DNA from: an uncultured Clostridia bacterium
Lineage (GTDB): Bacteria; Bacillota; Clostridia; Christensenellales; CAG-917
Assembly (NCBI GenBank): GCA_944332995.1
Contig: CALVKR010000008.1
Location: forward strand, 5,125 to 69,124
Length of the DNA stretch: 64,000 nucleotides
Reading direction: 5' to 3'
In this document: in pieces, positions 25,326 to 39,099 of the stretch
Position numbering within the stretch: position 1 is the stretch's first letter
How the letters are laid out: each line of letters opens with the position of its first letter
Notes under the pieces: model-generated
Seen by the model: the letters and a program-made list of their open reading frames with translations, nothing else
What the model was told of the DNA's origin: nothing
Database searches by the model: none
Made by a program: the position numbers and the translations under genes

Positions 25326-25610
25326 TTACTTTGCTTCTTTCTCGTAAACGCTCACTTTTTTGGAATCCTTGCCGAATCTTTCAAACTTGACGACGCCGTC
25401 AGCCAAAGCAAAAAGCGTATCGTCTTTGCCTCTGCCTACGTTGTTACCGGCATGGAATTTCGTCCCTCTCTGACGAACGAGAATGTTTCCCGCCAAAACG
25501 AATTGACCGTCCGCACGCTTGATGCCAAGCCTTTTGGACTCACTGTCACGACCGTTTCTCGACGAGCCGACACCCTTTTTATGAGCAAACAATTGTATTT
25601 TAATAAACAT
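25326..25610 (-). CDS. rpmA: 50S ribosomal protein L27 with Prp-cleaved N-terminal extension
   Basis: [29 protein letters not shown]. Confidence 0.98.
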
Positions 25611-25944
25611 TGTTTTTAACCTCCAAATTGATATAGTCCGAAAAACCTTCGTAGAGGTCGGACGCCCCTAAATAGAGAGTTTTCAGAACGACGTCGGCGT
25701 CGTGCGCCTCAACTTCCGTCATATGTTTGGGGAGTTTTACCATAAGATAGCCTTTTTCCTCGTCCACTTTATAGTCGACGTTGATTTTTGCCACCTGCAT
25801 AAGCCCCAGGACTGCCGTTTGCACTATCGAGCTGAGCGCCGCACATACCACGTCGTAACCTTCGACGTCATAGCCCGTGTGCCCCTCGCACTCGACTGCC
25901 GTTATGAAGTTTGAATCGTTTCTGAAAAACCTGATTGTAGTCAT
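25600..25944 (-). CDS. prp: Ribosomal-processing cysteine protease Prp
   Basis: GHTGY...G.DVVCAALS motif, located between rplU and rpmA. Confidence 0.93.
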
Positions 25945-26655: not shown

Positions 26656-28029
26656 TTATTCCACTTTCGGAAGCTTAGCGAGAGATTTTCCTATTTCCTC
26701 GTCCGTCGGGATATAGTCGCTCATCTCGCCGTCGTTATATCTTTGATATGCCACCATATCGAAATATCCGGTGCCGGTGAGTCCGAATAGAATAGTTTTT
26801 TCTTCACCCGTCTCTTTGCACTTTGTCGCCTCGTCGATTGCCGCTTTTATTGCGTGTGCGCTTTCAGGCGCCGGCAGAATGCCTTCAACCTTGGCAAAAT
26901 ACTCTGCCGCTTTAAACACCTCTACCTGACCTACCGACGTTGCTTCCATAAGTTTGTCGTGATAGAGCTGACTGAGCACCGCACTCATACCGTGATAGCG
27001 AAGCCCTCCGGCATGGCTTGCCGACGGCATAAAGTCCGCACCGAGAGTATACATTTTTTGCAAGGGACAAATTGCTCCCGTATCGGAAAAGTCGTATGCA
27101 AACTTTCCTCTCGTAAAAGACGGACAGGAGCTCGGCTCCACGGCTATGAAACGGTAGTCGTTTTCGCCTCTTAACTTTTCGCCCATAAACGGAGAAATAA
27201 GTCCGCCGAGGTTTGAACCGCCGCCCGCGCAACCGATGATTATATCGGGTTTGACGCCGTATTTATTCAGAGCGGTTTTGCACTCTAAACCGATAATAGA
27301 CTGATGAAGCAAAACAAGGTTTAAAACGCTTCCCAAAACGTAGCGGTATCCTTCCGACGTGACCGCCCTTTCAACCGCTTCGGATATGGCACAGCCAAGA
27401 CTTCCGTTGTTGCCGGGATGCTCTGCATTTATTTTTCTGCCTACAGCCGTTTCCATTGAAGGAGAAGGCGTGACAGATGCGCCGTAGGTTCTCATCACTT
27501 CTCTTCTGAAAGGCTTTTGCTCGTAGGAGCATTTAACCATAAACACTTTGCAATCGAGACCGAGATATGCGCACGCCATAGAGAGAGCGGTTCCCCACTG
27601 TCCTGCGCCCGTTTCGGTGGTGACTCCTTTGAGCCCTTGCTTTTTGGCATAGTATGCCTGAGCGATAGCGCTGTTGAGCTTATGGCTGCCCGACGTGTTG
27701 TTGCCCTCGAATTTATAATAAATTTTAGCGGGGGTACCTAGTTTCTTTTCGAGGCAGTAAGCTCTGACAAGCGGTGACGGACGGTACATCTTGTAAAAAT
27801 CGAGAATTTCCTGCGGTATGGCAATATAAGGCGTTGTATCGTCCAATTCCTGAGCTACGAGTTCGTCGCAAAAGACAGCCTTGAGCTCGTCGGCGGTGAC
27901 GGGTTTAAACGTCTGACCGTTAAGGAGCGGAGCAGGCTTCGTCTTCATATCCGCGCGGAGATTATACCACGACTTGGGCATCTCGCTTTCGTCAAGATAG
28001 ATTTTGTAAGGAATTTGTTGCTTACTCAT
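26656..28029 (-). CDS. trpB2: TrpB-like PLP enzyme (tryptophan synthase beta, TrpB2 type)
   Basis: 457 aa. YYKFEGNNTSGSHKLNSA, TETGAGQWG, GCAGGGSN, AGGLRYHG, APESAHA. Confidence 0.93.
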   Translation of the reverse strand: MSKQQIPYKIYLDESEMPKSWYNLRADMKTKPAPLLNGQTFKPVTADELKAVFCDELVAQELDDTTPYIAIPQEILDFYKMYRPSPLVRAYCLEKKLGTPAKIYYKFEGNNTSGSHKLNSAIAQAYYAKKQGLKGVTTETGAGQWGTALSMACAYLGLDCKVFMVKCSYEQKPFRREVMRTYGASVTPSPSMETAVGRKINAEHPGNNGSLGCAISEAVERAVTSEGYRYVLGSVLNLVLLHQSIIGLECKTALNKYGVKPDIIIGCAGGGSNLGGLISPFMGEKLRGENDYRFIAVEPSSCPSFTRGKFAYDFSDTGAICPLQKMYTLGADFMPSASHAGGLRYHGMSAVLSQLYHDKLMEATSVGQVEVFKAAEYFAKVEGILPAPESAHAIKAAIDEATKCKETGEEKTILFGLTGTGYFDMVAYQRYNDGEMSDYIPTDEEIGKSLAKLPKVE

Positions 28030-28066
28030 ATTTTTATTCTCCTTTTAAAGTATTTTCGACTTTGAC

Positions 28067-28388
28067 GGGAAAGAGTATAAAAAAACCTCTGTCCCTATTA
28101 AGTTTAGGGAAAGAGGTATAAAAAAACTCTATCCCATATAATGTGCTGGGACAGAGTGCAATTACTCTGCGGTGCCACCCGGCTTGACGATAAAATCGCC
28201 CACTTATAAGATACTATCATATCTTCACGCAATAACGGTGCGTATCCGTCGCCCCTACCTTTCGGTTCGGTTTGCCCTCAAAAGCCCATTCGCTTAAGTT
28301 TTTCCTGCCGTATTCTCATCATCGACGGCTCTCTGTATTGAACCTTTGCTTAAGTTACTTCCTCTTTTTCAACGGTTTAACTATTAAA
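28067..28388 (-). promoter_or_regulatory. Trp T-box riboswitch leader of trpB2, with tandem terminators
   Basis: Stem I with AGAGAG and GAUGAG motifs, specifier UGG at 28288-28286, T-box AAGCCGGGUGGCACCGC at 28185-28170, terminators at 28157-28120 and 28117-28079. Promoter TTGACA-17-TACCAT at 28425-28397. Confidence 0.93.
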
Positions 28389-28609
28389 TTGAATATATGG
28401 TAACACCGCTCCGACGCCGTGTCAACAATTTTTTTAAAAATTTTTCTTTTTTCGGCTCGCTTTTTAAGCATTAAAACTTTTAAAATTAAAACTCCTGCCC
28501 GTTATTTACTTTCACCGTTAAGGTCTGCCCGTTATTTAATTTACTGCTGCACGTTTAATTTAAGTCCATGTCTATCCGGCTTTAAGTCGTAAATTTTATG
28601 CTTTTTTCG

Positions 28610-34508: not shown

Positions 34509-34595
34509 TGGTGCGGGTAACAGGACTTGAACCTGCACAACCTTGCGATCATAAGAACCTGAATCTTACGCGTCTGCCAATTCCGCCATACCCGC
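34509..34595 (-). tRNA. tRNA-Leu(CAG)
   Basis: GCGGGTATGGCGGAATTGGCAGACGCG...TT-CAG-GT...long variable arm...GGTTCAAGTCC...CGCACCA, with encoded CCA. Promoter TTGACA-17-TATTAT at 34667-34639. Confidence 0.97.
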
Positions 34596-38742: not shown

Positions 38743-39099
38743 GGGGATGTTCCGGCATTCGACAGTTTGATGATTGCGTCATAAGCATGTCGTAGGCTCG
38801 TCTACGTAAAAACGGAAACAAAAAATAAACGCAAACAAAAATCAGAGCTCGCAAGAGTTCGCACTCGCTGCATAATTTAGCGGCATGTCGACCTAAGGTT
38901 TTCTGTTTCCTTAGCAATCGGCATCATAAAAACAGACAACGCCGCCCCACGTTCGATAAGGCGGTTGTCACAAATCGAAATTACCGAATAAAGGCTTGTG
39001 ATTGTGCCGATACGAGGGAAATTCAAACAATCTCTAAACATGTAGAAAGTGCCGCATAAGGCAAATTGGACAGGGGTTCGACCCCCCTCATCTCCACCA
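38743..39099 (+). ncRNA. ssrA: tmRNA (tag peptide ANKNQSSQEFALAA*)
   Basis: 5' GGGGATGTT...TTCGAC, 3' GGGGTTCGACCCCCCTCATCTCCACCA, tag ORF 38831-38875, upstream TATAAT. Confidence 0.95.

Follow-up and report, generated by a model that had tools for sequence, protein, structure and literature searches.

T-boxes are textbook either/or devices that act on transcription in Firmicutes and on translation in Actinobacteria. Reviews likewise treat them as either transcriptional or translational, and also list T-boxes in full or partial tandem whose mode is given as unknown (PMC7583486, PMC10907184). A dual terminator within one expression platform has been described in the Bc1 c-di-GMP-I riboswitch of the Bacillus cereus group, and such platforms are called rare (PMC11218506). 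In Bc1, ligand opens the first terminator (T1) while the second (T2) stays folded and masks the response; this is the only single platform with dual terminators that we found in the literature, and it is a cautionary precedent for a second terminator that forms unconditionally (PMC11218506). For T-boxes, we found no literature description of a dual terminator, of a terminator-coupled relay to the Shine-Dalgarno sequence (SD), or of a terminator 3' arm that alternates with an anti-SD strand, one key comparative study lying outside the coverage of that search.

Here we analyze the leader of trpB2 in a 64,000-nucleotide stretch of Clostridia DNA (the window, whose coordinates are used throughout; all features named below are on the minus strand). 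The source genome, from chicken gut, is about 1.54 Mb and 98.7% complete. trpB2 (26656..28029) encodes a stand-alone TrpB-like PLP enzyme of indole salvage (NF009057, 677 bits), with an AUG start codon at 28029 and an SD, AAGGAG, at 28044-28039. No TrpA and no TrpB homologue other than trpB2 was found in this 98.7%-complete genome, which marks trpB2 as a stand-alone indole-salvage gene, and the genus of the source species has small genomes that lack the Trp pathway. A sigma-70-type promoter at 28397..28425 combines TTGACA, a 17-nt spacer and TACCAT with a TG extension (10/12 consensus match). In one strain variant the -10 element reads TAACAT instead of TACCAT.

Downstream of this promoter lies a T-box leader (28144..28381) with stem I and its specifier loop, stem III, the T-box sequence and an antiterminator (AT). 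The RF00230 covariance model aligns to 28381-28144 over its full length (model 1-219 of 219) with 86.7 bits and an E-value of 1.9e-19. This score is below the gathering score of 93, so a search at the gathering threshold returns no match at the trpB2 leader and routine annotation overlooks it; the same fate routinely befalls other trpB2 T-boxes in related genomes, which score 72-92 bits. The specifier codon, UGG (Trp) at 28286..28288, sits within GAAUGGGC in the stem I internal loop and agrees both with trpB2 and with the single tRNA-Trp of the genome (anticodon CCA, discriminator G73). The bulge segment GGGUGGCACC (28180-28171) contains UGGC, complementary to the G73-CCA end of that tRNA. Genome-wide there are two T-box matches only, the trpB2 leader and one before a pheS-like gene, hence one at the trpB2 locus.

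The antiterminator, GGG-UGGCACC-GCAGAGU...ACUCUGU-CCC, spans 28148..28180, is formed by the T-box and AT strands GGGUGGCACCGCAGAGU...ACUCUGUCCC, and has a computed energy of -10.5 kcal/mol (ViennaRNA). Its 3' strand, L1, is also the 5' arm of the first terminator, which is the defining feature of a transcriptional T-box. An initial annotation, made from the letters of the window, had called a Trp T-box whose antiterminator sequesters L1 alone; the first part is borne out by the UGG specifier and the fit of the UGGC bulge to G73, together with the sub-threshold RF00230 match, and the second is correct as well. Judged by these sequence features, the trpB2 leader is a class-I (transcriptional) Trp T-box, and tRNA-dependent read-through is predicted.

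Between this one sensor and the start codon stand two terminators with a start-to-start spacing of 40 nt. T1 (28120..28157) pairs L1, ACUCUGUCCC (28157-28148), with R1, GGGAUAGAGU (28135-28126), over 10-11 bp at about -16.5 kcal/mol and continues in a U7 tract to 28120. T2 (28079..28117) pairs L2, ACCUCUUUCCC (28117-28107), with R2, GGGACAGAGGU (28095-28085), and ends in a U7 tract to 28079; it has one C.U mismatch, a 7-nt loop after extra pairs, and again an energy of about -16.5 kcal/mol, so that, as first proposed, T2 is a second complete terminator. A further left arm, L3, ACUCUUUCCC (28076-28067), follows; it is the equivalent of an ancestral element, L', described below. Arm energies were computed with ViennaRNA, which put T1 at -16.6 and T2 at -16.5 kcal/mol, and terminators were located with a custom hairpin-plus-U-tract scan, since a standard terminator scan skipped T1 and T2, whose loops exceed its 3-8 nt limit.

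The arms can also pair across units. R1 can pair with L2 in an alternative, non-terminating hairpin (28107..28135; 8/9 bp, -8.5 kcal/mol) whose loop is the U-tract of T1, and R2 can do the same with L3 (28067..28095; 8/9 bp, -9.9 kcal/mol). U-tracts are absent 3' of both hairpins. The arm coordinates and pairing counts of the initial annotation proved exact to the base, and ViennaRNA bore out both alternative pairings. What it had missed is that R2, in its segment GGGACAGAG (28095-28087), perfectly complements L1 (28156-28148; 9/9) while having a C.U mismatch against its own L2, a match that suggests a second check of the antiterminator. A composite helix in which L1:R2 encloses R1:L2 is nearly isoenergetic with T1 plus T2 (-26.6 versus -28.4 kcal/mol), and the composite hairpin ends 1-2 nt 5' of the second U-tract.

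L3 had been described as a third copy of the left arm. It turns out to be more than a product of the duplication: it predates it and represents an ancestral, widespread element whose end target is likely the SD. TrpB2 is widespread in the order, and upstream regions were extracted for 110 trpB2 loci. For each T-box leader, the best duplex between the terminator 3' arm and the segment from U-tract to SD was scored against a null of 300 dinucleotide-shuffled versions of the segment. Across Clostridia, an L' was detected at p<0.05 in 18/40 trpB2 T-box leaders and at p<0.01 in 12/40 (Fisher combined 2e-16), usually starting 0-6 nt past the U-tract. The same test on T-boxes of other genes in related genomes gave 0/25 (combined p 0.91; Fisher exact versus trpB2 3e-5). 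L3 of the window reached -13.4 against a null of -8.1 +/- 1.6 (p 0.007). The L' element is thus trpB2-specific and conserved, a broader and better-supported result than the relay through T2, and we are highly confident that L' and the terminator 3' arm are genuine, conserved partners. Because the leaders that bear L' are homologous, the 18 cases are not independent.

L' appears in several forms. Leader L007, from another family, reads L1-loop-R1-U7-AUA-CCCUUUCCC-G-spacer-GAAAGGAG, with one terminator and, past the AUA linker also seen in the window, an arm that complements its own R1, GGGAUGGGG; it shows the single-unit arrangement predicted for the ancestor. Many other leaders have a UGUCCC-, UUUCCC- or CCUCC-type segment directly past the U-tract. 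Typically L' looks like L1 in weakened form, either through C-to-U changes, which turn pairs into G.U pairs, or through a central mismatch as in the window, and such weakening is expected if the 3' arm must prefer L1 whenever L1 is free. Some L' lie in another register than L1: in leader L095, UUUGCCUCC pairs with the 3' arm GGGGGCAAG and also perfectly with the SD, GGAGG. Since L' resembles L1, part of the complementarity between 3' arm and L' may stem from duplication or gene conversion and not from selection. A test of matched versus mismatched 3' arm and L' pairs (p 5e-5) was discounted because each L' had been picked as the best partner of its own 3' arm, and the shuffle test is the valid one.

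In the window, the second partner proposed for L3 is the SD. The U-tract, AUA and the 5' half of L3 (28083-28070) can form a putative SD-sequestering helix (28031..28083) with AAGGAG and the following AUAAAAA (28044-28031), with 12/14 positions complementary; the corresponding copy in the first repeat unit is complementary to AAGGAG-AUAAAAA at 12/15. The tail 3' of R2 has a computed energy of -9.4 kcal/mol with the SD helix versus -2.6 kcal/mol with L3 blocked. We then computed SD accessibility in two states, OFF with T1 forced and ON with everything up to and including L1 made unavailable. For leaders with L' (n=18), the SD core is predicted to be unpaired with a probability of 0.38 in the OFF state and 0.64 in the ON state (Wilcoxon p 2.5e-4); the values for the window leader are 0.15 and 0.71. 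Leaders without L' go from 0.53 to 0.63 and 36 control T-boxes from 0.52 to 0.47, neither change being significant. L' and SD also covary within loci, matched pairs averaging -8.3 versus -7.1 kcal/mol for mismatched pairs (permutation p 0.0026).

At the window locus itself, shuffled versions of L3 mask the SD nearly as well as L3 does (fraction 0.25), the L3:SD pairing being AU/GU-rich. As shuffling L3 has no significant effect there, the claim of SD masking rests on the family-wide statistics. Taken together, these predictions lead us to favor, by a modest degree, a role of L' through SD masking, and a relay that starts at the antiterminator probably reaches on to the SD. The leader is distinct from the translational class of T-boxes, as two U7 terminators lie between antiterminator and SD, and the partner predicted for the SD is L3 with the U-tract rather than L1.

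The tandem terminators are a real feature of the source DNA. The window has 6 copies of the motif CTCTKTCCC where 0.46 would be expected, a number that 0/100 shuffles reach, and four of the six lie within this 90-nt stretch. A repeat search recovered a direct repeat in three copies spaced 40/41 nt, and Tandem Repeats Finder reported no repeat at a score threshold of 30, the units being too diverged or too short. The region folds with z = -3.6 relative to shuffles. Contigs of 4 DNA runs from 4 studies, joined by four more chicken-gut runs, cross 27850-28500 without indels, and an independent metagenome contig carries both terminator units too. The double-terminator arrangement is not an assembly artefact. 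Copy-number polymorphism had been suspected from sequence breaks after L3 and was rejected, as all 8 runs show two units and no indel. The breaks lie just after L3: a 28-N run is found there in the sister genome G001, and one metagenome contig (L111) ends 7 nt past L3.

T2 is a fixed, lineage-specific duplication, confined to the source species and its sister genome G001 (99% protein identity), which has the identical double terminator. Four congeners (81-83% identity) have a single, stronger terminator of -19 to -24 kcal/mol and no L' or third arm. No second case of tandem terminators turned up in other trpB2 leaders or in a set of 55 leaders from related genomes that comprised T-boxes of any gene. 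The initial annotation had looked to covariation among relatives for support of the relay and had named a single terminator in relatives as evidence against it. T2 is restricted to one shallow lineage, so comparative covariation cannot back the T2 step, and none was obtained; the observation named as counting against the relay was made in part, the four congeners having one terminator and the sister genome two.

The duplication may have arisen by slippage. In an L007-like ancestor, unequal duplication of 40-41 nt between its L1 and L' repeats would have added L2-loop-R2-U7, giving L1-loop-R1-U7-AUA-[L2-loop-R2-U7-AUA]-L3. Because a whole L-R unit was duplicated, the parity of the helix chain is kept and the ON/OFF logic at the SD is unchanged. 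The 40/41-nt spacing and the flanking L-type repeats are what slippage predicts, and they would also suit a neutral or slightly deleterious tandem duplication by L1/L' slippage, fixed by chance in one lineage and without relay function. The limitation of T2 to the source species and its 99%-identical sister, the sole tandem-terminator case among those 55 leaders, fits such a history as well. The present state of the repeat fits it less easily. The two units have diverged to 79% identity over a 29-nt core, with largely different loops, yet each stem has been kept and an extra C:G pair, present in both T2 arms and in neither T1 arm, is a compensated difference. No base differences between the SD region and L1 (28030-28157, 128 nt) are listed in the 8 runs, although one strain differs at 11 of the 243 adjacent coding bases (4.5%); in the leader that strain differs at two positions only, each of them within the antiterminator loop. 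With helix-chain parity preserved too, we regard a chance duplication without function as improbable.

We next consider what T2 would do when tRNA is bound. The initial annotation proposed that a single tRNA-binding event undoes both terminators in a cascade, to be checked by folding the region with L1 constrained into the antiterminator. In that fold T2 still forms at equilibrium. With L1 locked and the RNA at the length at which T2 is decided, AT plus T2 is computed at -24.8 kcal/mol and AT plus R1:L2 at -21.2 kcal/mol, and at full length the ON-state MFE combines AT with T2 nested in an R1:L3 helix at -39.7 kcal/mol, versus -32.2 kcal/mol for the domino fold. Since equilibrium folds with L1 blocked keep T2, the terminators are not dismantled thermodynamically, and any protection must be purely kinetic.

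These equilibrium values speak for a T2 that forms regardless of the antiterminator, as in Bc1, and lowers trpB2 in both states, with L3/L' still serving R1 as its anti-SD partner in an R1:L3 helix around T2. Bc1 itself, in which T2 stays folded when ligand opens T1, provides the precedent (PMC11218506), and in a genus of small genomes without the Trp pathway low trpB2 expression may be tolerated. The computed paths argue otherwise. The direct-path barrier to T2 (findpath) is 10.9 kcal/mol from a preformed R1:L2 hairpin versus 4.1 kcal/mol with L2 free, and the former exceeds the 7.3 kcal/mol of the default switch from AT to T1 without tRNA, which has to be passable in vivo, and quickly so, in every T-box. 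T2 has to nucleate at the CCC of L2, and in R1:L2 this CCC is held by the GGG of R1. An unconditional T2 would also leave unexplained a C in R2 that mismatches its own L2 in an arm that fits L1 perfectly, as well as the invariance of the duplicated unit among strains, and an unregulated block ahead of a regulated gene would amount to a wasted T-box. We therefore think it unlikely that T2 acts unconditionally.

The kinetic block can be expressed in time. We used a Markov model of two zippering helices, built on nearest-neighbour energies and Metropolis rates, in which the tRNA-locked AT is fixed; it is a crude model of RNA alone, without RNA polymerase, NusA, pseudoknotted toeholds or indirect paths. 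In this model the mean first-passage time to T2 is 9e7/k0 with R1:L2 preformed and 9e2/k0 with L2 free, compared with 3.8e5/k0 for the switch from AT to T1 and 1.5e3/k0 for formation of R1:L2. T2 completion against R1:L2 would thus be about 10^5-fold slower than with L2 free and 240x slower than AT-to-T1. With k0 scaled to an AT-to-T1 time of 0.04-0.4 s, completing T2 in the ON state would take 9-90 s, far longer than the dwell of polymerase on a U-tract. As a kinetic block, the domino idea is plausible in this model: the barrier difference makes it physically reasonable that one binding event deals with both terminators, and the equilibrium folds contradict it as a statement about stability. 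We put a conditional bypass of T2 in the ON state at slightly less than even odds. As a source of RNA evidence on termination, four chicken-gut 'RNA-Seq' runs were set aside; they give low-depth contigs that also cover the intergenic DNA upstream of the promoter, and they are uninformative on 3' ends.

The duplication may also have created an internal promoter, TTAATA and TATACT with a 16-nt spacer (28101-28074, minus strand; sigma-70-like match 9/12), from which transcription of trpB2 past T1 could partly bypass the T-box. Five promoter-like matches occur in the region against 1.7 expected from shuffles, so that a single match may be chance, and this one lacks a TG extension. Its TATAC motif is a component of the repeat, present after each of the two U-tracts, and its transcripts would begin inside the U-tract region of T2 and still include L3. 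We consider a bypass from such an internal promoter very improbable.

Our best explanation, tentative and a little less than evenly weighted, is that the T-box expression platform forms a chain of mutually exclusive helices that gate T1, T2 and the SD. In the order proposed as ancestral and found in many Clostridia trpB2 leaders, the antiterminator is followed by the terminator L1:R1 with its U-tract, by L' and by the SD, and L' would pair either with R1 or, jointly with the U-tract, with the SD region. In the ancestral ON state, uncharged tRNA-Trp would lock L1 in the antiterminator, and the R1 thus freed would take L' and leave the SD open. In the OFF state the terminator would form, and in transcripts that read through it the free L' would mask the SD.

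In the source species, the ON state would comprise AT, R1:L2, R2:L3 and an open SD, and the OFF state T1, T2 and L3:SD. At the second U-tract R2 would be without a free partner in the ON state, L2 being paired with R1 by then and L1 being tied up in the antiterminator that tRNA stabilises. Should the antiterminator collapse after T1 has been passed, R2 could close on L1, with 9 perfect pairs, or on L2 once that is released, which would stop transcription at T2. By this logic a single free partner would suffice for termination at the T2 site, L2 when T1 has formed or L1 when the antiterminator has collapsed beyond T1, and read-through would need both to be held. T2 would in this way tighten the OFF state, probing the antiterminator a second time about 40 nt further on. 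The anatomy of the sequence, the T-box identity, the conservation and specificity of L', the fixation of T2 in one lineage and the computed energies and barriers are shown; a conditional stop at T2 and control of translation by L':SD pairing are inferred. The reading in full, which we advance as possible but doubtful, is that one tRNA-sensing event is passed from AT to R1:L2, R2:L3 and an open SD, gating two terminators and then ribosome binding; that T2 serves as a time-delayed re-check, a form of kinetic proofreading; and that many Clostridia trpB2 T-boxes belong to an unrecognised hybrid transcription/translation class which uses the terminator 3' arm as an anti-anti-SD.

New here are the trpB2-specific L' element and its predicted link to the SD, the restriction of T2 to one lineage, the modeled kinetic block and the match of R2 to L1. 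If a conserved strand does couple the terminator 3' arm to the SD, one T-box would exert both kinds of control. The coupling through L' would then explain how leaky read-through is silenced, and the expression platform would hold a natural multi-step strand-exchange relay. The duplicated unit offers a natural experiment on whether such relays can be lengthened in modular fashion and whether a second terminator can re-sample the state of a sensor. These questions bear on riboswitch kinetics and on the design of tighter synthetic RNA switches.

Compared with class I transcriptional T-boxes such as those of B. subtilis tyrS, glyQS and trp-gene leaders, the trpB2 leader is alike in its stem I specifier, its UGGC bulge and the arm shared by antiterminator and terminator. 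It differs in an RF00230 score below the gathering threshold, in its second full terminator and in a post-terminator arm that would link the terminator 3' arm to the SD. In the B. subtilis trpE leader, read-through transcripts bound by TRAP reportedly form an SD-blocking hairpin, according to work by Merino, Du, Babitzke and Yanofsky. There too, transcripts that escape the attenuator under repression are said to be silenced a second time by a freed RNA segment that folds onto the SD; the sensor in that case is the TRAP protein, not a tRNA, and its pairing segments show no sequence relationship to those of the T-box leader. Tandem T-boxes and tandem riboswitches, which place two complete sensors in series, share with the trpB2 leader two serial termination decisions that sharpen the response, but in the trpB2 leader the sensor is single and the duplication is limited to the terminator unit.

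Translational T-boxes of Actinobacteria, such as that of Mycobacterium ileS, mask the SD, as is proposed for the trpB2 leader, with a pyrimidine-rich strand that has an alternative partner dependent on tRNA charging (PMC7583486, PMC10907184). In those leaders the SD helix has an antiterminator-like helix as its direct competitor and a U-tract terminator is absent, whereas in the trpB2 leader a terminator lies between the two and its 3' arm is the proposed intermediary, an anti-anti-SD. Bc1 resembles the trpB2 leader in having one sensor and two rho-independent terminators a few tens of nucleotides apart, and in Bc1 effects on both transcription and translation have been reported. This likeness is architectural and not that of a homologous family. 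Bc1 differs in that the arms of the trpB2 leader are repeats of one another, so that L2 may be captured by R1 while R2 has a choice of L1, L2 or L3, which is predicted to make a relay possible.

Downstream of the specifier, the trpB2 leader varied at a single site among strains. This was a linked two-base variant at 28158-28159, in the antiterminator loop, which changes GC to AT on the plus strand (GC to AU on the minus strand) and was found in several strains (X10, X25-X28).

Two independent assemblies were interrupted exactly after the third left arm, L3. In the sister genome G001, whose leader (L002) carries the same double terminator, a run of 28 Ns directly follows L3 and is flanked by a repeated CCC, and the independent metagenome contig with the same two terminator units (L111, positions 1-8) stops 7 nt past L3. 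Eight other runs spanned the site cleanly, and the breaks may reflect masking, scaffolding or a rare variant.

We also identified a sigma-70-like match on the minus strand within the T2/L3 region (TTAATA-16-TATACT, 28074-28101) that agrees at 9 of 12 positions. The TATAC that lies 3' of both U-tracts is a component of the repeat unit, and we consider this match to be probably due to chance.

In many trpB2 leaders of other genomes (L007, L034, L048, L081), we observed the arrangement GGAGACAU-N5-AUGUC from the Shine-Dalgarno sequence to the start codon. In these leaders the GACAU flanking the Shine-Dalgarno sequence on its 3' side can pair with AUGUC, made up of the start codon and the two bases after it; RNAfold predicts the resulting small hairpin both when the antiterminator holds L1 (ON) and when the first terminator is formed (OFF). 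This start-codon hairpin is absent from the window's own trpB2 leader.

Searching the whole window against Rfam at the gathering threshold yielded only two matches, a tmRNA gene (154.9 bits; 38743-39099, plus strand) and a tRNA of 84 nt whose variable arm is long (34512-34595, minus strand). Downstream of trpB2 on the minus strand lie rplU, encoding L21 (25946-26245), and the gene for the ribosomal-processing protease Prp (25600-25944), and because a 410-nt gap precedes this pair, trpB2 looks monocistronic.

Across the 110 trpB2 loci, the T-box core motif was not found within 560 nt upstream in approximately half (including L008, L009, L011, L013, L020-L031 and others), indicating that other modes of trpB2 control must exist. 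The source genome, G000, spans approximately 1.54 Mb with 44 tRNA genes and lacks TrpA. It carries only two T-boxes, before a pheS-like gene and trpB2, whereas related genomes from other families of the order carry 5-21, which suggests that amino-acid regulation is strongly reduced in the family of G000.
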